Numbered from the stretch's first letter, positions 14,960 to 43,532 are shown. The stretch is DNA of 64,000 nucleotides from Bigelowiella natans CCMP2755 (GCA_000320545.1 ADNK01000413.1:45313-109312); one strand, 5' to 3'. Numbers and translations: made by a program. The notes: generated by a model from the sequence alone, not told the origin.

Positions 14960-15800
14960 ATGCTCTGCTGTGGAATTTGCTATGTCATTTTTAACAAAGA
15001 TTGTTTTCACAAAACACATGGGATGTGCCCGTGATTTTCATCATGTCATTCTAGCAATTCAGTTCAGTAGTAGGTCGTCAGTAGGCAAATTTTCATGTTG
15101 CGCATTTTCGCAATTTTTGCTACTGATTGCTGATGGGAAATCAAATGTGGGTCACTTGACATGTCATGCTCGTGCAATTTTGCCATGTCATTCTAGCAAT
15201 TCAGTTCAGCAGTAGGTCGTCAGTAGGTGAATTTTTGAAATGAAAATTTTGTGTCATTCCCCCACTGACGGCAGATGGGAAATCAAATGTGGGGCATGGT
15301 GTAGTAGTCTGCTGCGCACACGATGCATGACGTGAGCAGCTTGTCTAGCACATGGCCACGGCGACCAGGCTAGCTAGCTAGGCCTGCGCATGTGCTGCGC
15401 ATGCGCAGCGCATGCACGCCGCACGCAGCGTAGCCGCCATGCTGCGCACGCTAGCACACGTGCTACGCACTGCTGCTCCAGCTGGCCAGTGCTGTTGGAC
15501 TGCACATGTGCATTGCTAGATTGTGACGGACCATTGAAAAAAGTGACAGATCATTTCATTGCATCCGTCTCGCTACCATCTCGCACTGATGAAACTTCAT
15601 TGCTGCTAGCTCTAGTTAGCTAGGGCTAGCTAGTCAGCAGCACGTGCAGCAGCTGCTGTTGCGATCGTGCACATCTTGCGAGAGCGCAGCTCATTCTCAT
15701 TGGTGCAACAAACTAGCAATCAAAAACATGTGTCTGCAACATGCTGCATTGCTTTTGCTTCCCTGATTTCACCAAAGAAACAACCAATCAGATGCCATGT
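14960..15800. repeat. TpA-depleted repeat relic with a 142-bp tandem duplication, (CTAG)n runs and a LINE 3'-end fragment
   Basis: Duplicated blocks 15042/15184 and 15132/15274; 15531-15571 matches the 3' end of the LINE at ~29270-29305. Confidence 0.75.
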
Positions 15801-16086
15801 TAGTACTGTTTTAAATTATATTCACAATTGACAACCCCACCCGCAGGGCTTGTCATTTTCTATCAGAATGTATCTTGTATGAAGCTCCATTTTAGAGAAG
15901 CATTACTCGGCATGAAAAGGAAAATGATGATTTAAACGCTTCGATGGATTCAGGATTCAGACATACAAGGACACCCTTGACAGTTTGTGTACTCCGGCTG
16001 AGAAACGAAAGTTTCTTCTGCCTTCAGTTGATGCTCATCATAAGGTTTTCAGAGAATACTGGATCCTACAAAGTTCTCGTGCGCGT

Positions 16087-17000
16087 TTAGCTTAACCTTG
16101 GGAAATCGTCTGCCCTCATAGCGCGTTGAGGTGCCTGGTTGCCACCCCTTCGACCACGGCCACGGCCTCGGCCTCGCCCCCCACGGCCGCGTCCTCCACG
16201 GCGGCCACGACCACGGCCACGATCCCTGTTGTCACGATTTTGGCGACTGCCTCGTGCAGGTTGGTAGCTAGCATTGAATGAACCAAGGTCGAGAACTTTC
16301 TTCGACTTCTTCTTCTTCTTCCTAGACTTTGATTTCACCTCTTCGAAAACGTCTCCATAGAGGGCTCCCTCATCGGTCTTCTTTCCCGCGAGCTTGCCAG
16401 TCTTGAAGCCTTCTTCTTCAACAACTTCACGTGCTTTTTTTGCGTTCCCATCAATCTGAACTTTTGCCAGGTATTCTTCAAGAGTGAAGTTATCTTTCTC
16501 CTCTTCTTCCTCCTCCTCCTCATCAAATAGATCATCTAGCTCCTCATCCTGAGCGAGCTCGTCTCCTTCCTTCTTCTCCCCATCAGCACCCTCCTCCCCA
16601 GCACCGCGGCCTCGTCCGCCACGGCCCTTGCGTCCACGGCCTCCTTTGCCGCGCCCACGTCCGCGTCCGCGTCCACGTCCGCGTCCGCGTCCGCGTCCGC
16701 GTCCACGGCGCGAGCCATCGTCAGCTTGAACACCATACTCGGTTCCCGGAACTCCCCATCCACCCTTACCTGCACCCTTCTTTCTGATCTCGCGACCGCG
16801 TCCGGTTCCACTACGACGGTCGAATTCACGCTTTGGTCCGCGACCTCCTCCAGTCGCTGCACCTGAATAGTTTTCATTCACGATTGAATTGGATTTCTCT
16901 TGTTCTTTACATACTATTTTGTACCTCGGGCCTTGCTCTTTTCCTGATCCGCGGGTGCTTGCAGTAATGCAAATGGGTTCGAATCTCCCACCCCACTCAT
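16087..17000 (-). CDS. SERBP1/Stm1/HABP4-family RGG RNA-binding protein
   Basis: MSGVGDSNPFALL, intron 16924-16863 (GT-AG), KREFDRRSGTGRG...GKGGWG, TLEEY, RG repeats, DFPRL end. Confidence 0.85.
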
Positions 17001-18072
17001 GGCTGTGGAATGCTGGAGGCTGTCCTGGAGAAGAGCAACCAGATTAGCAAAAAATCAAAAGTTTCCGACCACACTGCCGTGTGAAGCATGGGATAACATT
17101 TCAATTCAATATTCCCTGAAACCTAATTATATCTAATTCTTCTTAGAAAAAATGGATAAGAGCTCCAGCGCTAACCTTTAGGGGGAGGCAAGTCTCCACG
17201 CTATTGTTATTGCTTCTGCCAGCAAAAGGTAAGACCCAATACGACACAATTGTCGAATAGTGATTGAAAATATCAAGGTTATCATAAATATACTATATTA
17301 CTATGTACCGACATCCTTTTGAAGAGATAAATAGAAAGACTATCACCATCACATATTTGTTATATTGATTAAACGACAACATACAAACAGATATCTATTA
17401 AAATTTAACCTTGCTTCCTAAATATTCGGAAACGTAACTCTCTTTCGGGGAATGATACCCAATAATTATCTCGGATTCACCTGGATTTCCTACATATGGG
17501 ATGTGAATATTAGCAAACAGCGGAACTGAATATTGTTTAATCTTTTGCCGATTTGCAGGCTGTTTTGTGTCGGATTCCGTTGCAATCCTTGTGAAATCGT
17601 TGGGAAATGATCGGCGTTTTCTCACTGCGAAACTAACCTCCGGATACTCCGCAAGTAAAATTTGCTTTCAAAAGAGAGAGAGGACATTTTAGGGAATAGA
17701 AATATAGAAAGCCGAGAAGGTATTTAATTTACTTTTTGAAGACAAACATCCTGCAAAATCCTCTGAACTATGGTGATATTTCTCAAATAGTACATTTTAA
17801 TGCGCAGGCAAAAGAGACGGAAAGAGAAAGAGAACCTGATTGTGCCAAGCTCTCCACGGAGAGCACAGCTTCATTTGCATTTTTTGCATACGACGAGATA
17901 TTGAGTATGTCTTTTATTTATTTTTCACATATTTTCCTTTATGTTTAGTTTATTACATTGTAATTTTAGGCTGCGACATTTATATTGTCCGAATAAGTTA
18001 GAAAATTGTGGCATTCTCACTCGCTAATCGGTGAATTGGATTGGAAATTCGCCGTGGTCCGCCTCACAGACG

Positions 18073-18687: not shown

Positions 18688-18962
18688 ACGCCAATTATTC
18701 CCTCTAATGTAAAATGATGGGGTTGGACCTCACCTTGCCATAAGTTTCGAATCGTTATCACGAAGAAACCTCGAATGGAAATCAGAACTAAAATAATTCA
18801 TGCATTGAACACACAGAGTAATTTGTGTCAGTTATCTTTTAAGTGCATAAAGTATGCATATGAGATGTTCCCGTTATCAGATTTTTTTTTTTACGAATAG
18901 GGCTTAAACGGCAATACGTACTTTCTCTCATTACACTTTTGATCCTCCCTTTGTCTTTCTGT

Positions 18963-18963
18963 C

Positions 18964-19026
<63 letters not shown>

Positions 19027-19054
19027 TCTCTCTCTCTCCCCCCCCCCCCCCCCC

Positions 19055-19089
<35 letters not shown>

Positions 19090-19096
19090 CACACAC
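18963..19096. repeat. Compound (C)n/(CT)n/(CA)n microsatellite
   Basis: Directly visible. Confidence 0.95.
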
Positions 19097-19299
19097 CATA
19101 CAGCACAATGCGTGTGTGTGTTTCTGTATACGATCTTATAACGCATATCCGCTGTTATTCCTGGATGTGTCTTGTCGACTGAATGAATAAAAATATTGCT
19201 ACAATAAAAATATTGCTACTACACCTACGACTGGATTCAACACCAGAACACAAGCATCGATCGGGAACACATGCGACACAACATCTATCATTCGATGTT

Positions 19300-20050
19300 T
19301 CTCATCTAAAGTGCACCCAACTAAACCAACGCACGCACCCGCCATACAGACAGTGGACACGACAAACAGCAAATGACAATGGGATTGTGCGGCAAATGCA
19401 CATTGGCAGTGCATGCTAGCATGAGCAAGAAGTGTCATGACGTACGTGCTGCTGCAGCAGCTGCGTGCGCGTTTGTCAGCGCATTTTGAGTTCAGTAGTG
19501 ACTCCGAAGTTTCACGTTTTTCAGGCCTCGAATTTTTCCACAAATTGACCTCCAGCACATCACTCAAATTGATTTTTTTTCTTGAACCAATCTAGCAATG
19601 AGTCAAAACGTGTTTTTTTTGCACACGAATCATGCAGTCCCGCTGCATTGTGCATTTCAGTTCTTGCTAGCTTGCAGCTTGCTGCATGCGCAGGAAACAT
19701 GCTATAGCATGCGAAACCGTGCGTGAAATTCCCGGCTAGCCGGTCGGTTTCGCCCACTTGTGAAAGGCGCAACGTGCCATGATCGACGTGTCGTGTGGCA
19801 AATTGAAGGACATGTGTGGACAATCTGTCTGTCACAATGCGGCACCAACGCTAGCACGCTCATCTACATGCAGCGGCAATTTGCGCAGCCAACTCCAGAA
19901 TTGTTGACTGCTGTGATGGACCGCAGAGACGATTAGCTAAACCAGCTAGCAATTTCGTGCAACATGATTTGTAGCGCAGACTTTGCAAAGTTAGCTAGTT
20001 GTCACAACATGCGCGTAGCGTGCACACATGGTATGTGCATGCATCACCAA
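19300..20050. repeat. TpA-depleted, CTAG-enriched repeat relic of unknown family
   Basis: TG/CA-rich with residual TA largely in CTAG/TAG; short inverted repeat GCGAAACCG/CGGTTTCGC at ~19711-19753. Confidence 0.6.
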
Positions 20051-20169
20051 TGTAACGATGATTGCCGACGCACTGTATTGAATGCGTGATTTACACAAGT
20101 AGGCCCAAAATCCAAATAAGATCGAAACGTATTAAACCTCGACGCATCCATTGAAAACAGAATACACAC

Positions 20170-24460: not shown

Positions 24461-25400
24461 TACCTGGAGCCATATAGAGACCACTTGACAGTTTACTCCT
24501 TGAAGCATTATTATGGGAATCATATCGCAATTTTCCACAAGCTTAAACTAATAAGAGTCTGTCAACCTTTAACTCCGAAGGCCCACACGATATTCATAAG
24601 AGGTAATATGTAGACGAGGAATAGAATCAAAGACATCGCAGCAAACCTATAAGAACAAACATTCAAAATATGACCGGTTAAAACTTAATTTCTATTTTTT
24701 CACCCTCCCATTCGGCGGGGTGCTGAGTTGTTCCCATACTGCTTGAGGAGCACTTGGGATATGACAAGATAAACTCCAACTAGCCCTGAGTTAATCCAGT
24801 GAAACGTTATAATAAAGTAATTCGATCAAATAATGTAATTAGAGATCAAATAATGTAATTTAGAGATCAACCAATGTAATTTAGAGATCAAATAATGTAA
24901 TTTAGAGATGTAGGGGACCGTAAATGAGAGAGACTGCAAGCATGTGCGTCTCCACCATCGAGCTTTCGGGGAGTACTTTCCAGGCGTGTTCGCCTGCCCT
25001 GGTGGGCTGTGGACCGAGAAATTAATTCCGGGAAAAAGCGGCCATAGAGTGAATAATGAGACAAATAAATGTTTTCAAATTGTTGCCACCGTTTATGCAT
25101 AGGATACCACACTTGTCTCGAATCTCTGAGGTCGGTAATACGTCCGTCATGAGACAACATCCACTATAACTCTATAAAAATCACTGCGGTGAGTAAATAA
25201 ATGTAGCTGAAAAGTCAAGGATGCGACTGGAATAACTAGCTAACTATCTAACTAGGGTTCAGATATTTGTGGGTGAACATTCTTATCTATTTCGATAAGA
25301 AGAAAGCAGGCGTCCAATAAAAATGATTCGCAACGAAAATGAAAACTGTGCTCAGGTTGGCAATTTTCATTCCCTTGTTTTTCGCCTAAAGAAGAGGAAG
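20170..25400 (-). CDS. Multi-exon membrane protein with RGS domains (7TM-RGS-like); boundaries approximate
   Basis: Hydrophobic exons at 23.3-24.7 kb. RGS motifs in exons: FIEHIFSEWSAENYFFWRDAVVFE (~23.0 kb), MYHKYIKADSLH + VNISWQTRERF (~22.8-22.7 kb), AEKE|VYKLMSRDTYRRFK (~20.65/20.5 kb). Confidence 0.65.
24824..24909. repeat. Minisatellite, about 4 copies of a 20-21-bp unit (AGAGATCAAATAATGTAATT[T])
   Basis: Directly visible; probably intronic. Confidence 0.9.
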
Positions 25401-25704: not shown

Positions 25705-28036
25705 ATGGCATCCAAAATTGAAAAGAACTCTGACAAAGCCCGGGATGGTGAGACAAACTGGGAAGGTAGTGCTGGGCATCCACAGAACAAGGTGACGGGT
25801 GCAAAGACGACTACCGCGAGGAATGATATTATAGCTACTGAGAATGTAGATAGCGGAACAAAATGTGACAAAAAAAAACAAGAAAATGCGAAGAGCACTA
25901 GGATCGATCCAAAATTAGAAGGGCGAGATACAATACGTGAAACCAAAACCTCAAGAGTTGGAGAAATGAAACAAATAGAAGAAGATATCAAGGACGTTGC
26001 GAGTCCATTGTTCAAAGAGCAGAGAGAATTCATAGATGCGAACAAAGATTATCTAGGAGTGTCATCTGACTCCCATTTGGGTCTCTTGTTCCGAAGCATT
26101 GATTTTGATCTCGGGCCTGATGAGAGGGTGAAATTTTCGTCCCAAGTTGTACAGACAGATATCAAAGGAGAGGGAAAAGGTGAAAATGAATCTAAGCAAG
26201 GAGAAAGGGGATCGGTAACACCCACTGCAGAAACAGTTCCGCCTTTCTCAGTTAAGAAGAATGGTGAGGCCTCGAAAAATGGCCTAACCAAATCCCACCA
26301 GCAAGCTGCGCATGGCACCGATTTGGAATCTTTGGCGACTCTCGTCCTGACTCAACATGCACTTTACCTCTTCCCTCCAGCGATGAAAGTAGAAGAAAAG
26401 ACTTTCCTGGTGTACAATATTTATGAAAGATTCATACTACAGGACTTGGTGATGATTTCGCGACCTTATAGAAAAATGAGGAGTGAGGATGGTGACGATT
26501 ATGCCATCCGGAGCGACGATGTAGTTCTCCATTGGAAGACTAAAAAGCACACTTGGATACGGCCACCTAAAGGCAAAGGTCCTGAACTGGTTGAAGTGAT
26601 AAGCCACCAATTCTATGAATTGACTGGAATACGCCTAGCTATCCAATCAATGGATGGGGGAAAACTCATGGATATGATCATAGACAAATCGATTCAGGTT
26701 AATTTCTACATCATATATATTCTCTGTAAGCAATTTTTGTTTATTGACATTTCCTGGTGTGCTATCAGAATGAAATGGACGACGTGTTGATTGAGTTTTG
26801 GGGGTTACATGAATTAGTAATGCAAGGTTGGTTATGGCATTTTTGTTATCATCGCAATCGTGGCGAGGAGCCTTTTAAAAAGATACCGAAGAAACCAAAA
26901 TGGAAAAGGGAATGGTTTTCATTGAGTTCAGACAACTCCCTTCTTCGATTTAAAAGTCCTGAAGAGATGGCAGGATTTAGGGCCCAAGCAGCTTCTCTAA
27001 ATCTCCTTCCGGTAAAAAAAGATATGTTTCATTTTGTAGTCTAGCTAACGTGCCTGGTCTCTATCGTTTTGAAAAGGTTTCCCAAAAGCAAAGCCTCCGC
27101 AAAACCTTCAACAAGTGTAGAATTGATCTAATGGATGTGGACATACGCAACATGCCGATTCTACAAGATCCAGGAGGGTTTGAGGTCTGAACATGTTTTC
27201 TTGGTTGTTTCCTCACAATTTCTGACTTATTGAATTCACAGATTATGGTTGATACGCAATGGCACTTTGGCAGGGTGGATAGCCCAATCACACACCATCT
27301 ATTTTTGCCATTGAGTCAAGCTGAAATTGGACGGAGTCGTCGTACAAGCGCTATTCGAAAAATCTTCCCTTCTATTGATGTTTTTCGCAACCGAAGCAGG
27401 AGTACAGCTGCTTCTCCCAGCAAAAATTCATGGATACATTCAGTCTTTAAAAGAGTTCAGATTGCACAGTATGGATTAAAACGGGCCAAGGAACAAGCCA
27501 AAGCCTATTCTTCAAACTTTTATATCCGAACAAAACGGGCACTTCCTGACAAGCCCCAACCGCAAACTCCTCCTCCTGATGGATCTATGCCCCAGATCAC
27601 TAGCTATGACTTGTCAAAGCCCGGAAGTTATGTCTTAATGAGAGTCGCAGTTCCAATGGGCAAAGGTTACACAGAAGGGGGGAAAATTATGTTCCTTACT
27701 CCCGAGGACAAGAGAATGTTGGTTACTATCCCACCCGGGGTCACTGAGGGAGAGGAATTCGTTGTTAAAGTTCCAAAGATGGCAGTAATGGTTTCAGAAG
27801 GGACTACTGAGAAAAAGAATGATGGAACGGAGAAGAATGACGATGATGATAGGGTAAACAACGATCCCGGAAGCCCAGACGAAGAGCCCATCCGACTTCA
27901 ACTAGATGATTTCTTAAACAGTGATGACGAAGATGACGCAGTGGATCCTGCAGAAGGGGTTGACGACTTAGACTCTTCAGTTGCTGTGAAAAATGAGACC
28001 AAAGAGGAAGATATCTCGAGAGAAGTCCCGAAATGA
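25705..28036 (+). CDS. Multi-exon PH-domain-containing protein
   Basis: ORFs 25705, 26757 and 27230 are separated by short GT-AG introns. VMQGWLW...KWKREWFSLSSDNSLLRFKS is PH-like. The C-terminal region has a VAVP...VTIPPGVTEGEEFVVKVP module. Confidence 0.7.
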
Positions 28037-28506
28037 GCAGCCTGTGTGAGCGATCCGCTATTACTTGCTCAAGAGGTTAAAAAGGCCATATCTAAGATTG
28101 ATTGTTACGTGGCGCTCAACAAAGCTGCACGTTTATTTGTGATACCTAATTTGACTTTACATATATGATTTGAACTGAATAAACACTTTCTAGACTCTGC
28201 ACAGCCTGCAGTACGTGCACGCATGCTAGCATGGCGCCTGTACACGCTAGCTAGCTAGCACGGTATAAACTTATCTAGTCCTGCATTCGAAGCGTGATGC
28301 TACGTATTGTGAAATGCTGTAACAGCTAGCTAGCTAGCTGGCTAGAGAGCTAGAGAGCTACGCATTCTGTTGTCTTGGGCGCTAGCAATGAGATGATAAT
28401 TTGGTGATGCTGCAAATACACCTAGCTAGACATGCTACCATGCTAGTATGGCGCGTATGTTGTCTAGACTACTAGACTAGTAGAGCATAGGCATAACGCA
28501 CACACA

Positions 28507-28547
<41 letters not shown>

Positions 28548-28560
28548 TATATACTTGTTT

Positions 28561-29305
28561 ATGGCTTCATCATTGAAAATCGAAAAATCCCAGATGGCAC
28601 ATCGTGGATTGACGTGTCCACAAAAACGTGGAACAAAGTGTCTCTGTTTCGCCGGCTCAAATCGATCACTGACGACTTGTTAGATGACGAGCTTCCTACT
28701 GTTTTGACGACAACAGAAGCGCTCAAAAAAGATCTGAAAAAACATCACAAAGTGATGAAATCCTTTGCTTTTTTCGAGGAGGAATGCTAGAATGGTCCAA
28801 TGATTCACTGAGAGCTGTGCATCTCAAGAATCTTGGATTCCTTCCGTCATCTTCGATCACCGGCATCAAACTAAAACTTCCAAATGTCGCTATATCATGG
28901 ATGCGCGCCATCTGCATGTGGAGTGGGCAATCTTGGAAAATTCATGTTTTCACGTGGAAAATGTGCACAGACAGATGCCACATGCGATGCATGTGGCATC
29001 CTGAAGGACATGGATCATCTCCTGCAATGTCCAACACATAGTCAACAACAAATCAGATTGCGCAATCAAATGAGCGCAATCATGAATCGCAACGACGAGA
29101 CGAACCGGCTAACAAAGGCTGAAAAAGATTCCAGAACTGTTGCGCGCAGCGCGCGACAACATCGGTCGCACGAGGACGCTTTGAAATGCATGAAGCACGT
29201 GATGGCAGAAACCAACAGACACAACATTAGCGCTGTAGCCGCTGCATTGCACAGCTACATCAGGATGACCATTGAAAAAATTTAATTGTTCATTACATCC
29301 GTCTC
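28561..29305 (+). mobile_element. 5'-truncated non-LTR retrotransposon (LINE) 3' end with 14-bp target-site duplication
   Basis: C-terminal zinc knuckle CDACGILKDMDHLLQCP; identical ATATATACTTGTTT at 28547-28560 and 29306-29319. Confidence 0.75.
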
Positions 29306-29538
29306 ATATATACTTGTTTGTTAAAAATTTTGCGCACAAAATTGCATTGTACTTTGCTAACTGCGACGTCAATTGCATTTACATAGCTCTATGCGCAGAA
29401 ATAGATTAAATAATTTGAGTATGTGAGGAGACTGGCCTATCATAACGATTTGCAGCGGCCTTACATTCAAGTTACAATAATTACTACACGGAGAACCTCT
29501 GCCCCGCGACAGGCATCTAGTATACTCCCCAACCGCTG

Positions 29539-31563
29539 TCATGCTTCCAGGATGGCAGTCTGATTGTCACTCTTCTCCTTTCCTTCTTGATCTAATCAAA
29601 GACGTACGGAAGAATTTTCAGGATAAAAAAAAATGCAAATGCCGAAAATAATCTAGCAAGTAGAGTATTGTAAATAATTACTCATTTTGTTCCGAAGTAG
29701 GTCCAGCGCTGCCTGTATGGTAGCTGAAGATGTGAACAAACACGGTGGCAAAATTACATTATTTACCCCTGATCATCTGCACCATGATCAAATACTATGG
29801 ATAGATAAAGTGTATTGGTGATCCTACCGAGATAGTAACCATCCACTGAAGATCGCTGTAGAGAATTCATGAAGATGTCCGCCATATCTACCCGCGCATG
29901 GATATCAGGAACCTGATGTGAACTCATGCATCTTATCGTTGTCCCAGAACGGAAAAATAGCGCCGCAAATCTCAACTTATATACTATGTAATAAGCACCA
30001 TCGCAAGTCATCACACCTGTGCTTTCGCTATCATGAATACGAACAGCAACAAAACATCGTCTGCACCGATCACGGATTTCTGATGAAGAAAACATATATC
30101 CACGAGAAAAGGTCTGAGATAGCAGAACAAACCGCATACGACGAACTAGATTGGCAGATCAAATGCAGACGATTTACTCATTATCACGATGAGTTACCTA
30201 CTACGCACATACCTTGGTTGAGTGAGCATCAACACATTCGCATAGTCTGCGGGCAGACATCGACAGCAGTCGCAATACTTGTGCAGGAGTCCATGCGGTG
30301 TTCAGCCCCTTGAACAACTCTACAGCGGGGGCATAAGCGCCCACATATCTTGCAAGGATACTAGTACTGCTACTACTACTACAACTTCCCCGTGCCATCA
30401 TCATTTTTTTTTTACCATCATTATCTACATGATGTGGTTTGTTTACCCAAGATGGGTCATCATCATGGTGGCTGTCAACATCATCATCGTCTTTCATTCC
30501 TGGCCGCGGAGGGGGGGTGTATGCCCGAAAGGATGCTGATGCGTCTGCTGCATTGGATTCGGCTGATTTTGCTGTCCTTCCTCCTTGCTGCTCATCAATA
30601 CTACCAGATTTAGGACGACGGCCACTACGTAACTTCGGTTGTGAAATAGCTGCTGCAGCGGCGGTTGCAGCTGTGCCAGACTTCCGTCGTCTTCTACCAC
30701 CAGCACCACCACCACCCATCTTCTTCGCTATACCCGCAGCAGACACAATAGCATCACCACCCCCACCCTCATCATCACCATCTAATTGCAAATATTTGGA
30801 GACTCCGAGGGCTTTGAGGTTGAGCTGAGCCCTGTGGGTGGAGGGCGTGGACAGGTACTCGGCAAGTCTTTCATCGGTCAGACGATGTATTCGAGCGAAC
30901 ACCACCCGAAGGCCAGACGAAAAACGCTGCAAGAGATGCGATGACAGAGCCTATGCGAAATATATTCGCGCAGAGCATGGAAAAAGACAGATTAAATAAA
31001 GAATGAATACCAAATATACAACGTGATTTTTCTATCAACCATCGCCCATAAGACTACTTGATGTTATATTTGTGGTGATGGATAGATAGTTGTGGCTGTA
31101 ACTATGACCTGTTCCACTGATCGTTTCAGTTGAGCAGAAGCCAGACGTGCGCCTTGAGAAAAGGCTAGCCCGTACAACTCAGGAATAGCAATAATGCTCG
31201 CCCTTTTCATTCACACACACACACACACACACACCAACAAACAAGCATTACTCAGCAGTATGGAATGGATCAAGGTACCATAAACGTGAGATCAACAAAA
31301 GGATATGGCAGTAGTAGTGAGTACAATTGACGAGGAAAGATGATATAAAAGGATTGTTTGATTAGCTCTCAATGCTGTTACTAAATTTTTTCTTGGGTAC
31401 ATTTTCACAAAGTAGGCCAGGTCTCTGGCAGCTTCCATCATTCGCGCCCTCATCTCCGGCACACGCAACGTTTCTGTCATTCTCCTGGATGGAAAACATT
31501 GCTGCGACGACGATGACGATGATGACGAGCAGGATGACGCTGAAGGTGAGAAAGGGAGGGCCC

Positions 31564-31598
<35 letters not shown>

Positions 31599-32504
31599 AT
31601 AGTAGTAATAGTAGCAAAACGCCAAAACGATCATAAATAAAGTATTTTAGCATGTTGATATCAGATGTCTCAGGAGGGATTGTCATGTCAGAGAGGGGTG
31701 GGGGCTAGATTAGGTCATCATCACTAACCCAGTAGGCCGTCGTTTTTCCTTCTGTCGCTTATTGCCTCTCTTCCCTCCCCCCTTAAAACCCTTCATCATC
31801 TTCGGATTTTGTCCAGCTGTTCTGCCATAGCTCTCTTCCTTCTCATTCTGCCCAGTTTTACATCCAGGAGGAAGAGCAGCAGGAGGAGGAGGAGGAGGAG
31901 GAGGACGATATTTTGGCGAGCCATCATCCTCACCACCACCTTCGCCGCCTGATACAATGATTGACGGACGTTTTCCATCACCATTGTCGTTATCATTATC
32001 GTTATCATTATCATCATTATGTTTGGAATTGCTGGGGCATGAGCTGCTCCGCCTGAAGAGGAAAAGAAGGAGATTTTTGTTGAGTATTGGTCGGTTTACC
32101 GCTGCCGTGTGTGCGTGCAGACGTGCGCGCGTGTGTGTCTCTGCGTGTGTCAAGGATATCCAGCGGACGCTCGATCATACATGATATTTCTTCCCCCAAA
32201 CACGCGCGCGCGCACACACACATACACACAACTCAAAGAAGCACCAACGCCATTTGAACAACACCTCCTTACTACTACGACTACTGGTACTACTCGTACT
32301 AATATTACTACTCCTCTATTACGAAGTAACCTTCTCAGCCCTTGGCCCCCTCCCTCTTCCTCTTCTACGCCTAAATAAAGACCAAACAAATGAATAATGT
32401 CGCTATTATTATTCGTAATAAATGAGTAGTAATTTTGAGGAGTAGGCTGGCAACCGTGTCGCCCCAGCCGTATTATTTGTCATTTATTGATAATGGTAAA
32501 TTAG

Positions 32505-32542
<38 letters not shown>

Positions 32543-34911
32543 CAATGAAATGACTACTGCTGCTGCTTCTACATCATCAACAACAACAACAACTACTACT
32601 ACTACTACTACTACTCCTACTACATCCGCTCTGCCACTGTTACCACTATTATCGTCAACATCGCCATTGTTGTCCCGATGAGTAGGGAAGGGGGGGCAGC
32701 AATTTAGCAGTCTGATCTCATGTTCCGCCGGATGGTGGTACAATTCTCTACATAATCAAACAATTCATAATGGGCCACGTACAGAAAATAGAATGTTGCG
32801 TGCATTGGACAACACCAATGATGGAATGGACGACAAAACCCTTTATAATTCACAATTTATCGAGTGGAAAGAGGGTCTACTACTACTACTACTACTACTA
32901 CTATTACTACTATTACTACTTCTTTGTATGGGTGGATGAGATACCCATCAGTAAGTAGTATACTAGTGGATAACGACTGATGTTCAGCAGCATATTTTAA
33001 TGGGGAGTGGAACGGAAAAGGAGTAGCATTCCGAAGTTGAAGGCAGAAGAAAACAACTCCTCTGTAATGAACAAAAAACGACGACATCCATAATCACATT
33101 ATTACGCGAATCGTTCCTTGAAGCGCTTGCATAGCCTCCCGAGAGGGTTGAAAACGTCTGTGCACAGCAATGAAGAGCAACACCAAAGAAGAAGAAGAAG
33201 AAGAAGAGTTCGTGTAAAGGGCCGTTGGTCAATGAAAGGTCAGAAAAGATAAGGTCGCGTGCCAATCACCTACTATCAGCACTACGAGCTATTATCACCA
33301 TCGTTACCTTTAGCAAGCTGAGGCACATGCAAAGCAATATCCCCAGGGCCCCATTCAACTGCCATACCGCCCTCCCCTCGTTTGAATATGCTCTCGTCGT
33401 CCTCTTCTTCCTTCTCAGTATCCGCAAAGCCGCGTTGTTGCTGCTGCTGCTGGCTTTGACCGAATGAGGATGATGGTGATGGGGATGGGGACAGTAGCAT
33501 ATCTGCTTCTTCCGTCTTCTTCTTCTTCTTAGTAGAAGAAGAAGAGCCCCTCTTCACCCCACTTAGGGTCCTCTTCTCTTTCTCCATGCATACAGCTAAT
33601 GATGAAGAGAATAGTATGGTGTTGGTGTTGTTGTTTATGATGGTGATAAGGTTGATATAAATCTACCGTTTTCAATTAAATCACTATGAGTAACTAAATA
33701 AATCAATAGTTAATCGCAACTCCGTTGTGAATGCACTGTAAGGAATATAGCGCTGCGTGGTATGCTTATGACTGTTGTGTGCAGTCAAACAAACACTCCT
33801 TCAATCAATGAACTTATGCATAGAGCATCAAACATTACACACGTACACGTACGCGCGCATATAAATAAATAAATAAATATATATATATATATATACGCTC
33901 AGAAAGAATTGTTGAATTCGTGGGTGAGAACGTATTATAACACACCTAGTTCCACACGCATAGAGGCGTGGTGCAGAAGGAAGCGATCAGATAAGAAGGC
34001 TCTTGGATTTGCTGCTATGTCCTCTTCTCCGTCTTCTCCTAGCTCCACATGATGATCATTCTCTCCTTTATCAAACTGTCGTTTCACATCCTCGCTATTG
34101 TTGTTACTGTTTTCATCGTCGCTTTCGAGTCGGCCACTCGCCTTTTTATTCGGTTTTGCTGAAGAACTCGTCGCGTCGTAGTTGTCATCCCCATCCCCAT
34201 CCGCATCCCCTTTTGTTGTTGTCGCTGTTGCTGTTGTTGTTGTTGTGGTGGTGGTGGTAATGGTGTTGCGGTGATTCTCATGGGGTTCTTCTTGGCCGAC
34301 ACGCATAGCAGCAGCAGCAGCATCATCCCTGTTTCTATCCCCGCTTTCATCACCATCGTTGTTACCTTTGTCATTCGGAGAAGCTGGACCTGCTTCTGCC
34401 GACGACGACGACGATGATGATGATGATAACGATGATGGTGATTCAGCAACTGCGTTTACTGACGTTCTTGATTCCGTGACTGGTACCTCGTTCTTCCCAT
34501 GATCGTCTTTGTTGTTTCTTGTTGTGGTACTAGAGGAGGTAGTAGTAGCAGTGGTAGTAGCAGTGGTAGACGTGGTGCTGCGTTGATGTGTTTCCGACTG
34601 CTCTCCGAAAGCTTCCTCCAACGCCTGATATTCGCCATCATCACCACCGTCAACATGAATTCTCATCGATATCGTCATTCTTATTTGTGCTAGTGGCAGA
34701 CATCATTATGCGCACACTCACTCACTCACACATGCCCACGCGTATACGACATATGCTTCATACCTGGAGCGTCTCGAGGATGTTTGGGGGGGCAGAGCAG
34801 ATCTTGAACGTGTGAATCCAATCCTCATACTAGATAGAAATGAGCGTGGGTGATAACGGCGATCGACGACGACGATGGAGATCATGATGATATTGATGTT
34901 GTTGTTGTTGT

Positions 34912-34946
<35 letters not shown>

Positions 34947-35200
34947 CGGACGTTGGTTGTGAAAGGTGCGAATGGTGGAGTGGTAGAAAAGACGATATGA
35001 ATCATTTCACCATAGATGTTGATGACCGTGTAAATGTTGCTGCTGCCGTTGTGAAGAATAAGTACTACTACACTGAGAACCACCATCTACCTCTTCATAG
35101 TTAGGAGCACGTAAAGTCACCACTTCTCCACTGCTTGGTGCCACGACGATCCTGTGGTGATTGATGATAGATTATGATGATGATGATAAGAATGCTGGTC
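29539..35200 (-). CDS. Large multi-exon protein with C-terminal VPS9 (Rab5-GEF) domain; 5' extent uncertain
   Basis: Exons give YAPAVELFKGLNTAWTPAQVLRLL, VMTCD, ...SSVDGYYL and ATIQAALDLLRNK; upstream exons are low-complexity. Confidence 0.5.
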
Positions 35201-36374
35201 GAGTCATCAGGTAATGCGTGATCTTCGTAATTAAAAGTGGGGGGGATAATGATGCAGCAGCAGCACCTGAGAAGAATCGGGTTCGTGCTCTTTATCTTGG
35301 CATTTGTAATTGTTACTTCCTACGGAGATATTTTATCCAAATACAATTTACCATGTGCACTACGTGTTGGCTTCGTAACATACAAGATTGCAATTGTTCA
35401 TTTCCACCAATGATAATACCATACTCCCTTCTCTTATTTCATGTAAACTTTCTCCGTCCCCCCCCCCTCTTTCTTCGTGGTGCACCGGTTACTACTACTA
35501 CTGCTACTATTACTACTACTACAACAACTCATCATCATTCATACCTTGACACCCACACCATAGCGCTTTCTGAGACACAAGACCAACGGTCCACCACCAC
35601 CACCACCTGCTGGTAACGAGATAACATTCACTATATTTCATCACCAACCACCATATTCAAGAGATGAGGAAGAAGAGGAAGAAGATACAAACTACAATTT
35701 CACGGTTTCTCTTTCCCTAAAGTGAACGAGCACGTAGCACAAGGTCATTATCATCGTCAAAGTCGTCGTCGTCATCAGGAATGGTCTTGAGAAGATGAAG
35801 AAGAGCTGTGGAATATGTCTTACTTTTGTTCCAGTCACTCCTTCTCCCGAGGCGCGCCTGCTGCTGTTGCTGTTGCTGCTGCTGTTGCGATGACAATTTC
35901 TGCTTATTATCCTCCTTCCCCCCACTACTCTTCATCCTCGGTGATGATCTCGTAGCTGCGCGTGTGACTTCACAGAGGTGTGGGATATAACAACATTCCC
36001 CCGATTCCACCTCTCCAAATTGCCGTCTATTTCTACTTCTTTCAGATGTTATTATTCTTCTAGACGCCTCGTCTTCACGCTCGTGTTTTCCTTCTTGTTT
36101 ATCTTTGTCTCCACTCTTCTTGGTGGTAGTGACGGCAGCAGTAGTATGAACGGAAGTGCTGCCTGAAGGCGAGAACAGCCCCCCCCCCTCCTCCAATTTC
36201 TGATGAGGATTACTTCTCCCTCCTTCTCTTCCTTCCTTACTCGTTGGCGGTATTAAGGGTGATGATGGGGATGAAGGCATTGATAGGGGTCGCTGAACCA
36301 GTACCTCAAGCACGGAGCTTCTTAGAACCTGTAGAAAGGAACGGAAGAAGGTGTATGATGGTCCTTTGGTACAA

Positions 36375-36408
<34 letters not shown>

Positions 36409-39097
36409 CATTGTTGCCTTGTGCTGCCTTGCCGTAGGACAAGTTTCGTTCGTATTTTTCCGTGCAAAGGCAGCAGTATTTTGATAAATGTTCTGCTGTC
36501 TACACGCCTAACACGCTTTTAGGACTATCTCACCTCTCTTTTCTTGGGTTTCGGTTGGCGCAACACGTTCTTATGCATAGTACACCCCTAAAACGGACGG
36601 ACGGAAGAACACAGGCACTGAGGTATGATGATGCTGCTTCTTGTGCTGCTGCTGCTGATGATGATGATGGTCATGATGATGGGGATGATAAATGCTCTCG
36701 AAGCGAACAGTAAACCCTAATTACATATACTCGTATCTGGTGTGGAAGAAATTATGTTTTTTTTGTTATTTTGGTGGTAGTGCTGCTGCTGCTGCTGCTG
36801 CTTCTGCTTCTGTTTCAGCAGTTATCAACCGAGGCCCACAAAGCTTGCAACCAAAACCCTCGTTCCTGGGAAATAAAAGAACAATCGAGATTAAGATGAG
36901 ATGGAGAATCGATGGAATGCAAAGCAATTGTCCATGGCAACGTCATCTTAGCACGGCTTTCTGGGTTCCCTCTTCTTCGAGTGGGAACACAACATTGCAA
37001 AGCTACATATATCCACACCTTCATTGTTTTTGCTCCTAAAGTAAGGCTTCCGCCTTCGGGGTCAGTCAGCTCAAAACAAAATGTCTGCGAAATAAGCCTC
37101 GTTTATTGTAAATGCAACAATTTGCCGACCATGCAATGATGATCGACGGGAATCATTGTGATATGACGAGCATTTCGCCATTTTTGCGAACTAATATGAA
37201 TGGTATTTCATCTTTAATGCGATATCAGGTAGAAGAGAGATTGAAGGGAAAGAAAGAAATAGGAATAACTGATTATGTCATGAATCGTTAAACAATCAAT
37301 ACCTTGGCTTCTGGACCTCCGCCGAAACGAACAGCTCTACACAAAGTCTGAGTTTGTGGCAAAATCCTCACTATTTGAATGCATTTCAGATGCTACTGAC
37401 AATGGAAACTTGATAAATAACATATAATGCCTTGCTCCTCTCTCTCTCTCCATCTCATTGTCTATCTCTTTCTCGCTCACCCCCCCCCTTTTTCCAACTA
37501 TTTTCCGAATACGTTTTTTGACCTGGTGAGAAACTTTGAAGGTCTCCCTCGAGTCATTTGCCCGCTCGTCCTATGAATTAGCACATAACAAAAACGAATA
37601 TGTCGGAATGTGATATGTGATCTTCTGTCCATACTTTTGAACGGATAACTCTAAGAGATCCCAAAAAAACGTGTTCATGGAGAGCTCGATGGCTTCGCTC
37701 ATATCACGAAGTTCTTGCGTCTATAGAGTGATTGCATGTTTTGTTGAAAATCTGCTGCGTGTTCCATGTTGTTCTTATTCACCACAAATGATCTCAAGAG
37801 CATCTTGGTCGAATTCCATCTGGGGAGGGGGGAAGGATGCGATCAGCACATAAATAACAACTCCTTCTCAAAAAGTAATTCTAAACTTGATACAAATTGA
37901 TGTCAAGGTGCATCTGACTAGTACAGGCAGCTCTCTTTCCGTCGTTCCCCTCTCCCCTTGGTTAATATTGGGATTGTTCATCTTTTTACCTGTAGTAGTA
38001 GTTGGAAGATCTCCACCGGCCCACACGTAACAACCAACCCTTGATCTCTTCGACGCCCACCACAACCTAAGCAACATGCACGCATAATAATACACCTAAT
38101 CACTTTTTGCTGCGGTCCTAGATACCCTGTCGCTACTTTACCAACCATCTCTACCCTTCTTTCTTTCTTCCATCCTGCTATTATCTCTCATTTCATCGTG
38201 CCGACGACGCTGACAAGAAGGTGTACATTGAAATACCTTGGGGGTGTCACTCCGGAACTTATAGTAGGCCTAAGGAGAGTAGTATAATTGGATGATGATA
38301 CTGCTGCTGCTGTGCATTCGATGATTGTATCGGTATTGGTTCCATTATGTGCGATGATAAGAACGATAACGGTATCGTAACAATCTGCTCATTCTCGCAA
38401 TCCTCACCTTATCTTCATCCCTAAACGTCGTTGCTGATAGACTATTCACGTCAAAGAGCAGGCCCCATTGGAGCATGATACTTCCCAGACGCATAGCCTA
38501 TCATTTATCTTTCGTTGTCAGCATTCAGATTGCACATCCATCCAGGTATCCGCCACATTCATATCAAGGCTATACGGCCTCATTTACATCTACTACGATT
38601 TTAATAAAACCACGAGAATTGCTCACGATTTAATGTTAACGATATAAAATAACCTGCGTTCGGTTGGCGGATATTTGTGTTTTGACAAGCCAAGAAACAA
38701 GCTTCGATCTGATGGGGGGAAAGGGGATAATTACAAGGTATTGGATAAAGGATATGAATATTCTAGCATGATAATGGATCATCATTCGCACCGTAAGCAC
38801 CATCATCATCATCATCATCATCATCATCACTCATCATCATCATGGTCAGGGATATCAGCACACAGGTTAGTACAGAAAAAGTAGGAGTAATAACTACACC
38901 CATCCTCGGAGCGAGAAAGAGGGAGGAGGGGGACGAAGGAGGAAGAGATAGAAAGGTCACAACCCTAAGATGATGTTCATGCTGTCTAGTCCAACAAACT
39001 CTTCCCCAGTCTGCAGTATGCCAGACTCCCTGATGAACGTCATTTTGGGTAATGATTAGGAGAAGACGAGCAGTTTTTCATGTAGCCATCAACACCA

Positions 39098-39128
<31 letters not shown>

Positions 39129-39286
39129 TTCTTCTATACCATCAATAAACAACCTTATGTTTTGTTTCAATCCCTGAAGGGATTCTCTGGTCTCATCAAG
39201 GGGAAGGGATCCGACCTGAGACAGAAAGCAATACAGAATATCAGTTTCATGTTTCATAATAAAATGATAATGGCGCATGGGTGCTC

Positions 39287-39326
<40 letters not shown>

Positions 39327-39447
39327 ATACCTGGCTCATTCGTAGCATTCGGTCTAAATCCTTCAAAGCCTAAAAATGAAAATGAAGCAGTTATGAAAAC
39401 GCTTCTCTCCCAGATGCTTGAATGCCACGTTGTCAAAAACAGCCTTA

Positions 39448-39481
<34 letters not shown>

Positions 39482-39813
39482 TCTTTTTCAATCAACTCAC
39501 AGATCAATTATAATACCAATCAAAAAACTAATGATAATTGGATATTTGGGAAGAAATCACATCGGGGTAAAATGCAATCTAGATCCACTCACTATCGAAA
39601 TAACAGTGGAGTGGACAAGGAAGAAGGCTCTTAGAGATATTCTTTACCACTCTTTTATGACCTCTCTTTTGCGTACTGTCGTGGCAATCCGTCGTCTAAG
39701 TTGCTGCTCAGCTTTTCGAACTTGGCCCAAATGTTTCACCTTATAAAGCCGGAAAATATTTATATTATGATAACGTTAGTGAGGACTACATGTGCGAGCG
39801 TATGTATGTAATA

Positions 39814-39857
<44 letters not shown>

Positions 39858-40500
39858 ATAACATGTTTATAAATCATTTATTTAGAGTGTGTACATTATC
39901 TTGTGTGCGTTTGTGTTTGTGCATCGTGGTGTGTATGTACTGTGCACCATACGCCTAATAAATAAGATCTGCTATGCCATGTAGTGCGCAAGGTAAAAAA
40001 AACTGCATGATGGGCCATCTACATGTACAAAAAATGTTGTTACCTTTTGGAGGATGTAATCTCGCCCTTTCAAGTACTTCGCCGTAATTCTAAGCCAAAT
40101 TGTAATACATCACTAGTTTACGGGTGGGTCAGAGCGTACTGTTATTCTCATCTTCTCCCTCAAAGTTATACCATCATTATTACAGACTACTAACGATTTC
40201 TAGACTTCTAAAAATGATATACGAATGATAGGGAACACTACTTCGTATTCGCATGCTTTGCCAGAGCTTTCAACTGTTCTTGAAGGGACACCACTGATAA
40301 ATAATCAATATGTTGATGATCTAGGTGTAATCCGTTCCAATGTGTGAGAGGTGGGGAAATAGGAGAATCCTGCCATTGATAGCTACCATTGGTGGTATTC
40401 TTGGTCCCATGATGATGTTGTGTCGCCATCACCATCATCATCATCATTATCATCATCATCACCATCACCACCATCGTCATCATTATCAGCCCCATATCTC
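30300..40500. repeat. Microsatellite-dense domain [(TAG)n, (CAT)n, (TAC)n, (GAT)n, (TA)n, (CA)n, (GAG)n]
   Basis: Numerous visible runs, e.g. 31564-31612, 32506-32538, 32878-32919, 38801-38842, 39289-39319, 39451-39480. Confidence 0.9.
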
Positions 40501-41892
40501 CCTGTTCCAATTTTCTTCCAACCCTACTACCTTGGTCATATTTGTGTCGAAGTTCGTGACGGGCGAGCAGAACCTTGTCACGAAACAACATTTTTAATTT
40601 TTCATCATTGGGTGCGAAATTTCATTGCTAGACCTTGTCCAATCGCACTGCGATTACATTTCGGCGCTTCATCTCAGCTACTTGACTGTCGGTTAGCTAG
40701 ATATATAACACATATGTAAACTTCTGTCACACTCTGGTGCACTTTAAATTGAGTAAGATTTTGAGTGTCATCACTTTCGCCTGACGTAGCCATCGTACAC
40801 ATTGGGCAGCGTCATCTAGGTCCTTTCTTATCTTCTTCTCCAGATACGATAACCTTGTATTTTATTAAAGATTAAATGTCCTGTATTGTATGGTTTTTCT
40901 TCCTCGTCAAAGATGTTCACCTGTCAACGTTTTTCTGCATTGTGGCCTTTTCTGCTTCCAAACTAAGGCATAAGCTTGTAATTGCATCTTTTGCTCTGCA
41001 AAGTGCAAATAGAAGTAGAGGGATTTCAATACGAATTCTCAACTTATGAATGTACTGTTATAATCACTTTTGTTTGGTGCTGGACTGCTTGTCTAATCTA
41101 GCCCTCAATCGCTTCTCTTCTCTTCGAAGCCACCATATCTGATACCTACGATTTGTCATGGAAGTCGTCGAGAAACCAAGCACGTTTTCACTTAGGATCA
41201 AAGTAATTGTGCAATAAAAAACTCTCGTTGCTAAGTTACTGTAATTGTACATATTTCATTTCTATACGCTCAAGGTGAATGGATAGGTTTCGCCAGCCTC
41301 ATGCAACTATGATCCAGGGAGACTGAGCAGGGGCCGTCAACCTGCAAAGAGCCCTCTGGTCCTCAGCAGAGACGGTCAGTGTCTTGCCTTTATGCCTAAT
41401 AAAAAATTGCGTAAATATTTTGGAACATCATCTCAAACGTCCTTCTCTTAAAGAACAGCCTTGCTCCACTTCAAGTAAAAAGCACCAACCCCTCAGATTC
41501 AAAACCGCACCCCGGAAAATACAGGAAAATCACAAAACGCAAGGTTCGCCAGAGTGAGAATCTCACCTTAGCATGGTCTTTTCCTCTTGCGTATGAGGTA
41601 GGACGTAAGGGATTTAAGCCAATTTGCAGGTGTGGGGAGGGGGGGAAAGCATGTTGTGTTCTGGTGTCGCCTCTCATCTCCGACAGGCACGGACGTTTTC
41701 TTTCAATTAGTAGGTTGCAGACACGCCAAACCCATCATTTCTCCTGCGATCTGCTGCTGCGACAACGGAACGATTCTCTTTCTCTAACAGAACATTTTCC
41801 AGAGCTCGTCTAAGCCAAAAAGCGCGAAGGATGTCCTGGCGTCACACGTCATGATCCTTTCAAACAAGCATTGGGAGTGTTCGCCACTTGCA

Positions 41893-43000
41893 CGGAGAGC
41901 ACTCTCCGTGAAGATCTGCACACGTGTGTGAAAACTCGACACGTGTCGTGACTCTCAGACAGAATCGATGAAGCGGAGTGGATCTTCTTGTTGCGAATTG
42001 GAAGTGTGGTTCATCATCATTGTTCTCATTGTTCTTCTGACGGTCAGACGATGACGATGGAATCTCTGGTGGGAGGAGTTCGAAAGCACAGGTCCTCATC
42101 CCACGAGGCTTGCGTTCGGGAGCATGAGCTTTGATGTGTTCTCAGCGTGCGGAGGTCTAGAGGTGTCCAGGTGTGGGGAAATCAGATGGACTCTCTTGGC
42201 AAACAAATCGAGATCGAGAAATTGAGGGATGAGAAGAACAAGCTGCTCCAGCTTCTTGCGGACAGAGTGTTTGCGAAGGCGGAGTTCGAAAAAAAAGGCA
42301 GCTGAAACTCAAAAGGAAATCCAGCTAGCTAGCTAGCCAGGCGAAGGAGGCAAAACTGAAGGATGTGAAAGAATGGTTCAAGGAGGCAGCCGGTGATGCA
42401 CTTCACTTTGTCAACGTCTGAGGAACAAATCGGTGTGCTGAGACATTTTTGCGTGTGTGCTCAGCCATGGAAACGGAGGAAAGCGGGGGGGTGAAGTTGA
42501 CAGAAACCCTGCTGGAGGAGACCATGCCCAAAGTCCAGAAAGTTCTCATTGTTGCAAGCAGAAAGAGAGAGGCCGATGCGAAAATCTCCAAATTCCTGCC
42601 CATGGTGCCACTGACATGCTGACAGTGTGCACGATTTGGCGGTGTGTGAACCCCTGCTAGCCTGCTAGCCTGGTTTCACCGAAATTGCGAGGGGTGAGGC
42701 AAAGAGCATGGAGGACAAGGGCATTGAAGACATTCTTGCGCACTTGGTGGAAGGTGTTGCTGTGTTTTGTTTAAGTCGTGAAAGAGTTCCGTCGATCACG
42801 CAAGGAGTGCATCGACCGTGTAGCATTCATTCAATTTTGTGCACTCGCTAGCTCGCGGGATGGAGCGGAATTGCTAGGTTGCGCAGCTTCGCAATTTTGG
42901 CCACTCAAGCATCTAGCAGCGCGAGTGCTAGAGTGGCAGGGAAATGAAATGTGGGGTGTGCTAGCTAGCTAGTGTGCATGGTGTGTGGTCTGCTGCGCGC
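41893..43000 (+). pseudogene. Degenerate paralogue of the Crinkler-locus 5' exons and 3' flank
   Basis: 41893-42491 aligns with 12632-13126, and ~42935-43000 resembles 15270-15320; shows TA->TG/CA changes and a CTAG insertion. Confidence 0.85.
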
Positions 43001-43532
43001 GCGCATGGCAATCGAATCGAACGCCTAGCTAGCTAGCTAGCGTTACAGCTGACAGCAGCTTCCGTGCATGTGTGCTGTCTAGCTGTCACTTGCTAGCTTG
43101 CTGGCTTCCTAGCTCCTGCTAGCCTGCCACATCTAGACATGTCTTTCTAGCTGTGTGTGCATGCCAGCATCTAGCTAGCTAGCTAGGCATGCCTGCCATG
43201 CTGGCATGGTGTTCATCATTTCAATTTGGCACGTTTTGTCATGGAACACTGCGCAGTTCTAGTTCTAGAGTTGTCACGTCATTCACCTTTCGATTCCTGC
43301 ATGCCATGTTGCGTTGTGATCATGCCTAGGTGCCTTTGGTGGGCTCGGATGGCAGCACACTTCGCCTCAATCTCAATGGAACGCATGCGAAAACATCTGA
43401 ACATCGCTTCATTGTGCAATAAAACGTAAAATAGGCATGAAAATAATCAATTTTCTTGCAGCGTGTCCACATCAAGATTTGGCTTTATAAACCAACACCA
43501 GACACAATCTTATATGTTCTAAAAACGGAAAA

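Follow-up and report, generated by a model that had tools for sequence, protein, structure and literature searches.

Eight-base CTAG insertions and their relation to TpA hypermutation in a 64-kb window of Bigelowiella natans

The 64,000-nucleotide stretch of the Bigelowiella natans CCMP2755 genome analyzed here (GCA_000320545.1 ADNK01000413.1:45313-109312; referred to as the window, the single source of all counts given below) contains islands in which the dinucleotide TA has been depleted and the palindrome CTAG is abundant, either singly or in (CTAG)n arrays, and this raises the question of whether CTAG is left behind there or newly made. A hypermutation of TpA to TpG or CpA has already been described in this species (Mettrop et al., bioRxiv 10.64898/2026.01.13.699255), with 230 of 231 hypermutations reported in the preprint main text as transitions of this type and an adenine deaminase proposed as their cause. 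An earlier note on the window had suggested that both features of the islands may go back to one process or chromatin state, i.e., a mutator of roughly TA[not G], to which CTAG is immune on both strands, and error-prone DNA synthesis that might also generate the arrays. The analysis separates the two: the TpA mutator largely spares CTAG, and most of the CTAG in the islands was gained as a precise eight-base insertion, in which a four-base host word wxyz becomes wxyz-CTAG-wxyz. The TpA process was known already; the eight-base insertion is new.

CTAG gained as an eight-base insertion

With no island being defined, an exact four-base repeat was found on both sides of 31 of the 152 CTAG runs in the whole window, and a repeat with one mismatch at 20 more. 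Exact flanks amounted to 0–4% for each of the control words (CATG 6/341, AGCT 7/237, TGCA 3/353, GATC 0/196, GTAC 1/139, TTAA 3/256, GCGC 0/102, ACGT 2/160, CCAG 2/185, CTGG 5/135). When repeat lengths of 3–6 bases were combined with spacer lengths of 0–6 bases, CTAG was the sole enriched non-coding spacer (36 of 170 positions, p = 3e-37), the other strong matches being shifted registers of CTAG. Spacers of 1–3 and of 5–8 bases showed no excess of the CT/AG type, and none of the exact-flank scars carried a flanking repeat of five bases. Permutation of the flanks among the 65 island runs gave a mean of 1.7 and a maximum of 10 matches, compared with the 31 observed. Within the islands, 24 of 49 single CTAGs stood between identical tetranucleotides, versus 3 of 92 in the background, all three of which lie in clusters added later.

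The duplicated word is symmetric, as is expected of the target of a dimeric transposase or integrase: (C/A)NN(G/T) accounted for 26 of the 31 words (25.6% expected, p = 2e-11) and CNNG for 14 (6.4% expected), with CATG as the commonest (5/31). Counted strand by strand, the base before CTAG was G or T in 56 of 62 cases, G being twice as common as T, and GCTAGC is the dominant hexamer of the islands because most of the targets follow (C/A)NN(G/T). A single variant, CATG-CTATAG-CATG, was present at 19702. The scars and arrays, to which no strand is assigned, are located as follows (duplicated words in brackets):

15040..15800: island 1, intergenic, with (CTAG)3 at 15370-15381, (CTAG)2 at 15626-15633, an exact scar ATTG-CTAG-ATTG at 15516 and decayed scars at 15482 and 15616.
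19260..20050: island 2, intergenic, with exact scars at 19416 (CATG), 19592 (CAAT), 19667 (CTTG) and 19736 (CCGG).
28190..28490: scar cluster, not TA-depleted, with scars at 28226 (CATG), 28350 (AGAG), 28472 (ACTA) and 28477 (TAGA), and the arrays CACG-(CTAG)3-CACG at 28247-28258, (CTAG)3 at 28326-28337 and (CTAG)2 at 28422.
28783..28794: scar AATG-CTAG-AATG, inside the reading frame of a long interspersed nuclear element (LINE).
42153..42174: two adjacent eight-base scars, AGGT-CTAG-AGGT and the decayed GTGT-CCAG-GTGT.
42207..42218: tandem duplication of ATCGAG, six bases, without CTAG.
42321..42340: CCAG-(CTAG)3-CCAG, a 16-base insertion read as two nested eight-base events.
42640..43420: densest island, 3' of a SERCA-type gene, CTAG making up 26 of its 29 TAs, with exact scars at 42657, 42665, 42848, 42928, 43079, 43093, 43119, 43133 and 43265, a decayed one at 43201, and the arrays TGTG-(CTAG)3-TGTG at 42961-42972, (CTAG)4 at 43025-43040 and GCAT-(CTAG)4-GCAT at 43171-43186.
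48310..48321: scar ACTT-CTAG-ACTT, between a Got1-like gene (+) and an FKBP-like gene (-).
58148..58748: scar cluster with moderate TA loss, with scars at 58152 (ACTG), 58338, 58401 and 58716 (CATG), 58674 (AGTG) and 58741 (CATA).

The eight GCTAGCTAGC runs listed in the earlier note were recovered within one base of the positions it gave. By number of units, the arrays comprise 143 single CTAGs, two doublets, five triplets and two quadruplets. Exact four-base flanks bordered four of the seven arrays of at least three units (1.2% under the null), and inverted flanks of 3–4 bases were present at three of the seven. Since CTAG itself fits CNNG, (CTAG)3 can be read as the product of a second event at an existing scar. 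A microsatellite growing by slippage should instead yield more two-unit than three-unit arrays, which contrasts with the two and five observed here and with the exact flanks of the long arrays.

Sites that lack the insertion involve the following elements:

12680..14871, plus strand: CRN/RHS-like gene, an intact member of a multi-copy family, providing empty sites for 42157, 42167, 42207 and 42325.
41850..42640, plus strand: dead paralogue (relic) of the head of this gene, with no non-CTAG TA remaining.
28561..29305, plus strand: LINE relic, 5'-truncated and TA-depleted, with high read depth and with relatives that carry PF00078 and PF14529.

Empty sites were found at three loci, namely 28787, 42157/42167 and 42325. 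At 28787, eight letters are missing (at 28782) from other contigs in all three DNA runs, and the relatives P0127, P0129 and P0130 read EEEWSND unbroken where the scar interrupts the LINE. The inserts at 42157 and 42167 are missing from the intact paralogue. The insertion at 42321 splits ETQKEIQ from AKEAKLKD, which the paralogue P0122 holds in one frame as ETQEEIQ-AKEVELKD, its residue Q24 matching both sides of the array; here the relic reads GGAAATCCAGCTAGCTAGCTAGCCAGGCGAAGG versus GGAAATTCAGGCGAAGG at 12964, as had been pointed out before. Because these sites contain neither the insert nor the duplication, the event is wxyz > wxyz-CTAG-wxyz. The arrays are thus new insertions, as the earlier note had supposed, and not ancestral Helitron ends, given that the 16 bases at 42321 and the scar at 28787 are absent from relatives. 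The duplication ATCGAGATCGAG that it had noticed at 42207 is present as well, and its six extra bases are missing from other genomic copies. Unique contigs from the three DNA runs agree with the window over 27900-44000, with no other letters. At 42611, other contigs again lack eight letters, but here the word between two copies of CTGA is CATG and not CTAG.

Several other sources of the word were considered and dropped. Two-base CT/AG footprints showed no excess over expectation, and general formation of palindromes was set aside after the spacer scan had shown CTAG alone. Conversion of CCAG to CTAG as the main source was discarded, CCAG being mildly low in the islands (14 vs 22.8) and abundant in TA-stripped viral DNA, and paired inosine nicks at TA were discarded since the duplicated tetranucleotides are not centered on TG/CA. 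The methylation motifs given for ChlorV in the parts of 10.1101/2025.11.19.688996 that were consulted do not contain CTAG. A scan of viral contigs with the CATG-CTAG-CATG motif returned eight loci, in which, leaving aside the site searched for, one exact flank was present among the other 151 runs and thus no sign of such a process, and a metagenome scan with the LINE-end motif returned one contig (L001, 61% GC, 34-base match) with no scar in its six CTAG runs. No description of the wxyz-CTAG-wxyz scar was found in the literature searched, the scope of which left out subscription papers, Repbase and preprint supplements.

Flanking context of the TpA process

The context in which TA is lost was analyzed mainly in a virus-like insertion that is AT-rich, lacks introns and occupies bases 1 to ~12430:

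1..4600, no strand assigned: TA-stripped left part, TA observed/expected ratio (o/e) 0.06, 27 TAs remaining, TG/CA gained, no CTAG scar.
4601..12430, plus strand: partly mutated, then unmutated part, TA o/e 0.61 and then 0.76, used as baseline.

TA o/e was 0.06 in 1-4600, 0.08 in the relic and 0.22 in the LINE. Species, dinucleotide, targets (viral DNA, LINEs and repeat relics) and the loss of TA with gain of TG/CA are the same as those in the main text of Mettrop et al. Alignment of the relic with its paralogue showed that nine of nine TAs had been lost, six by transition and three by transversion; the substitution direction in copies of the gene head rests on a subset of the aligned genomic copies. 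The three transversion differences, given here without direction, are GTAG/GGAG, GTAC/GTCC and CTAT/CTCT (12688, 12760 and 12845 vs 41.97–42.2 kb), of which two sit at an A protected by the context rule described below.

In 1-4600, 21 of the 27 residual TAs lie in CTA, TAG or CTAG, compared with 178 of 486 in the unmutated 7001-12400 (Fisher p = 5e-5), and in the first kb this applies to seven of eight, the proportion given in the earlier note. In 41830-43420, CTAG makes up 30 of 33 TAs, versus 89 of 2820 in the host background. When 250-base host tiles were picked on low non-CTA/TAG TA alone (12 of 206 tiles), CTAG reached 15.0 per kb, compared with 2.45 elsewhere (permutation p = 1e-4). We then fitted a model in which a single flanking base sets the survival of TA on each strand, independently of the other strand, with 7001-12400 assumed to be unmutated. 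Fitted per-strand survival in the virus-like element was lowest with A as the flanking base (0.014), intermediate with T (0.185) and G (0.215), and highest with C (1.02); the model fits all ten NTAN classes, and the likelihood ratio for C has p = 5e-7. The direct counts of CTAG itself are tiny (2 vs 1). In the transition zone (4601-7000), the A class alone was reduced (0.44). The count of NTAN classes that the earlier note had proposed thus shows a bias, with the hierarchy ATA >> GTA, TTA >> CTA.

Given the fitted survival of 1.02 for TA in the C context, CTAG is largely spared by the TpA mutator. This part of the proposed TA[not G] target stands, but protection is not absolute: the relic reads CTGG at 42068 where the gene family has CTAG, and in four scars whose flanks are perfect the core has decayed to CTGG or CCAG. 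For the edited base, the rule may read either as TA without a following G or as TA without a preceding C. In a codon-junction test, both classes rose (per 1000 codons, NCC-A from 4.0 to 15.7 and NNC-AG from 4.0 to 10.2); the aligned cases at 42102 and 42198 favor protection by a C at the second position upstream of the A being edited, with 29111 being ambiguous. Part of the residual TAs could have been regenerated from CTG/CAG. Fungal repeat-induced point mutation is likewise a dinucleotide-specific, context-biased hypermutation of repeats, but it runs in the opposite direction (CpA to TpA) and without a fixed insertion. The hierarchy offers a fingerprint for the adenine deaminase proposed in the B. 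natans hypermutator, for which Bn78255/Bn77986 is the candidate. The preprint main text gives no flanking-context rule (CTAG, context, trinucleotide and microsatellite all have 0 occurrences; 10.64898/2026.01.13.699255), and no such rule for the B. natans process was found in the literature searched, subscription papers and preprint supplements being outside its scope.

Over 4600-7000, the mutation front fades within ~2.4 kb of one element, ATA contexts going first, and looks like spreading from one side.

Sparing would favor a gradual build-up of CTAG by point mutation, as the only stable word containing TA, and the survival of 1.02 speaks for this. A simulation combining the published baseline bias with the fitted hazards (one run per setting) yielded 1.3–2.0 CTAG per kb, compared with 18.9 observed, and therefore sparing alone is insufficient for the CTAG density; it also yielded no exact flanks among 8 and among 12 simulated CTAG runs. 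Together with the flanking repeats and empty sites, which refute it, this leaves pure sparing next to no probability. The simulation also fails to reproduce a compositional skew of five islands (15300-15800, 19260-20050, 28190-28490, 42640-43420 and 58200-58800), in which the o/e of the GC dinucleotide is 1.80 and that of CC/GG 0.50 (simulated 0.9 and 0.8–0.9, respectively), and of which the scars account for part only; CATG, TGCA and GCGC are enriched in the same islands.

Scars, the TpA mutator and the origin of the insertion

The 18 stripped viral tiles (4.5 kb), in which ~98% of the unprotected TAs have been lost and targets are plentiful, contain no scar, compared with 26 expected. When host tiles were ranked on non-CTA/TAG TA, 19 of the 34 sites fell into the 13 lowest of 206 tiles (Mann–Whitney p = 8e-5), 1 into the next 9 tiles, and 14 into tiles with an o/e of at least 0.35; among the latter, the runs at 28247-28352 sit in tiles with an o/e of 0.89–1.07, i.e., not TA-depleted. 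This ranking is independent of CTAG, unlike our hand-drawn set of eight islands, which was chosen after CTAG had been seen and for which the count of 37 events inside and none in the 58,343 bases outside is circular. Furthermore, CATA-CTAG-CATA at 58741 retains ATA on both sides, and the DNA around it is therefore not being stripped. The co-location of (CTAG)n with TpA-depleted DNA that the earlier note had proposed to test is thus real for the lowest host tiles but fails for the viral DNA and the remaining sites. Based on the absence of scars from the stripped viral element and on the 14 sites in DNA of moderate or normal TA content, the scars are neither a by-product nor a reliable marker of the TpA mutator; scar formation and TpA mutation share places, not mechanism, and we caution against using (CTAG)n to identify DNA processed at TpA. 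The virus-like element may simply be younger, which would keep a shared chromatin state possible.

These distributions bear on a model that extends the earlier note, with an error-prone polymerase as the TpA mutator, micro-duplications as its further product, and (CTAG)n, being immune, growing by slippage. The enrichment in the most TA-depleted host tiles, the non-TA and transversion changes of the relic and the even-numbered arrays, which slippage may explain, are in its favor. The scar-free viral DNA and the sites in tiles of higher TA are against it, as are the excess of three-unit over two-unit arrays and the inability of slippage to put a new word between target copies: the islands show a fixed word with an exact four-base host duplication instead. 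In the preprint main text, moreover, 230 of 231 de novo hypermutations are pure transitions, with no indels implied; its 21 indels give 21/(85.05 Mb x 3132) = 7.9e-11, which matches its rate for DNA outside hypermutable regions, so that none of the 231 would be an indel. The eight-base scars, which are absent from that main text, are a separate process, and the polymerase model is largely refuted and very improbable. Each of the six clusters is located at gene 3' ends or between them, and two divergent intergenic stretches are free of scars; opposing open reading frames (ORFs) flank the clusters at 15.3 and 48.3 kb and the cluster at 42.6 kb is 3' of the SERCA gene, with strand calls for the other three resting on one ORF or weak splice-signal counts. 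This placement would suit selected signals for termination, polyadenylation or chromatin, but scars also interrupt the LINE and the dead gene, whose relatives lack them, and their flanks vary, repeating the sequence around each site. Selection might account for the places in which scars persist but not for their formation, and as a source of the CTAG words it is highly unlikely.

We consider it probable that the scars are excision footprints of a putative cut-and-paste transposon that inserted and then left, and likely that they persist since the TpA mutator largely spares CTAG. The putative transposase would insert with a four-base stagger, duplicating the host target, and excision would cut a few bases inside element ends that start with CTA(G). 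The self-complementary 3' overhangs could then anneal via their central TA and be sealed to a single CTAG, and pairing through TA would explain the uniform product. A second event in CTAG would turn a single scar into (CTAG)3, and even-numbered arrays might stem from slippage or from a join without overlap. The scars accumulate in intergenic DNA between gene 3' ends, alongside dead repeats and the TpA mutator. CATG-CTATAG-CATG at 19702 fits two three-base ends joined without overlap. Several points weigh against excision. The evidence comes from one 64-kb window, in which no complete element was found that combines CT..AG ends and inverted repeats with a four-base duplication. Known footprints are usually mixed, yet variants of two and three bases show no enrichment in the window, and at ~6 per kb the events lie very close together for cycles of insertion and excision. 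Four of the nine arrays are even-numbered and need an extra step, direct flanks are missing from three of the seven long arrays, CTATAG is a single case, and no family with a four-base duplication that was checked shows this target or these ends.

The same uniform product, the very high local density and the lack of any trapped element would follow if no transposon existed and host enzymes cut silent DNA with a four-base stagger, added a fixed CTA or CTAG at both ends of the cut and the resulting self-complementary tails then paired. A reverse transcriptase similar to telomerase, or a nucleotidyltransferase that carries its own template, could do the adding; we know of no such enzyme. The insert gives TAG on both strands together with a frameshift, and two reading frames are broken here, which would suit a second arm of mutagenesis alongside the TpA editor, one that writes a fixed CTAG and thereby an eight-base frameshift that puts a stop codon into either strand; that the written word is also the one left alone by the editor would be a similarly tentative part of this idea. 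Chlorarachniophyte nucleomorph telomeres are typically (TCTAGGG)n, according to the portions of PMC4494063 consulted, and so contain CTAG, and G or T precedes the insert in nearly all cases. Nevertheless, TCTAGGG was not found in the window, telomerase priming should favor T, yet G prevails, the nucleomorph, whose telomeres in Amorphochlora amoebiformis read TCCTGGG, is a separate compartment, and the viral element, an obvious target of defense, carries no scars. Host enzymes acting without an element are therefore an unlikely source, and the second arm is correspondingly doubtful. Less probable still are templated insertions by polymerase-theta-type end joining (microhomology-mediated end joining of the synthesis-dependent type, as outlined in PMC5728401), sieved by TpA and CpG mutators that spare CTAG and CATG. 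The islands are rich in CTAG, CATG, TGCA and AGCT, ordinary 5–6 base duplications are about twice as dense there, and inverted flanks of 3–4 bases border some long arrays. Templated inserts, however, are copied from nearby sequence and differ in length, in contrast to the constant insert and the invariable four-base duplication found here, and CATG, AGCT and TGCA as spacers are not enriched beyond shifted registers.

Among known systems, Tc1/mariner transposases offer a precedent for the favored excision model in the account of PMC6943129: cleavage falls a few bases within the element, and after end joining 2–4 bases from its start or its end stay behind between the duplicated target, as in TA-CAG-TA and TA-CTG-TA of Sleeping Beauty. 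Membership was rejected, as those elements duplicate TA and leave a mixed product, in contrast to the variable tetranucleotide and near-uniform product found here. Ginger1/Ginger2 (PMC2836005) and Sola (PMC3627910, PMC10741241) share the four-base duplication and a symmetric target preference. As far as described in those sources, Ginger targets CCGG/CCGT or RTATAY and has TGT ends, compared with (C/A)NN(G/T), best CATG, and implied ends starting with CT; CCGG was 1 of the 31 targets here and the insert is CTAG, not TG..CA, which led us to reject it. Sola elements have a DDD transposase and very variable ends, and the Sola2 families described there duplicate the AT-rich AWWT, which fits in length but not in target. 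Helitron 3' ends (CTRR/CTAG in PMC10741241) share the word but are described without target duplication and with a subterminal hairpin; they were ruled out, as a duplication is present and the empty sites show just 8 or 16 bases added.

As a signature, the scar can be counted, dated and picked up by any regular expression. It points to an enzyme of defined chemistry, i.e., a four-base stagger and a fixed CTAG product, unmatched among the described families checked. If it is a footprint, it would reveal a very active, unrecognised transposon and a route by which scars of excision give rise to microsatellites with no need for slippage; should there be no element, it would represent a new kind of sequence-writing mutagenesis.

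Neighboring elements and minor observations

The window also contains:

5305-6999: putative capsid ORF in the virus-like element.
43533..46931, minus strand: SERCA-type Ca2+-ATPase gene, with the exon 43536-44981 being 100% identical to jgi/Bigna1/46678, a match that assigns the window to B. natans, whose dataset bears the name Bigna1 in the preprint.

From its gene layout, we take the insertion at 1..~12430 to be virophage- or Polinton-like. Pfam gave weak matches only (ATPase, DUF5901, helicase) on this element, which holds packaging-ATPase-like and helicase ORFs, and neither the putative capsid nor the CRN/RHS-like protein retrieved a relative when viral contigs were searched. CpG is depleted in the element as well, with an o/e of 0.26 in its mutated and 0.43 in its unmutated part, but not in host relics (0.7–1.06). 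The unmutated part is almost without CTAG (1 in 7.8 kb).

At another locus, the gene model P0124 (jgi/Bigna1/88681) fuses the end of the viral helicase-like ORF with the CRN/RHS-like gene (window 12277-13030), and because it joins both, they are adjacent at more than one locus. The CRN/RHS-like gene may be cargo of the virus-like element or a piece of a duplicated segment. A 143-base tandem duplication 3' of it (15040-15300) resembles the tail of the relic (42780-43120), which therefore looks like a head and tail with the middle deleted.

The LINE relic is flanked by a 12-base direct repeat (28549 and 29308), and its 3' end (29208-29306) has a depth of ~1000 times single copy, with RNA reads from both strands. 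A short tandem array of ~21-base units occupies 24820-24910, in a divergent intergenic stretch.

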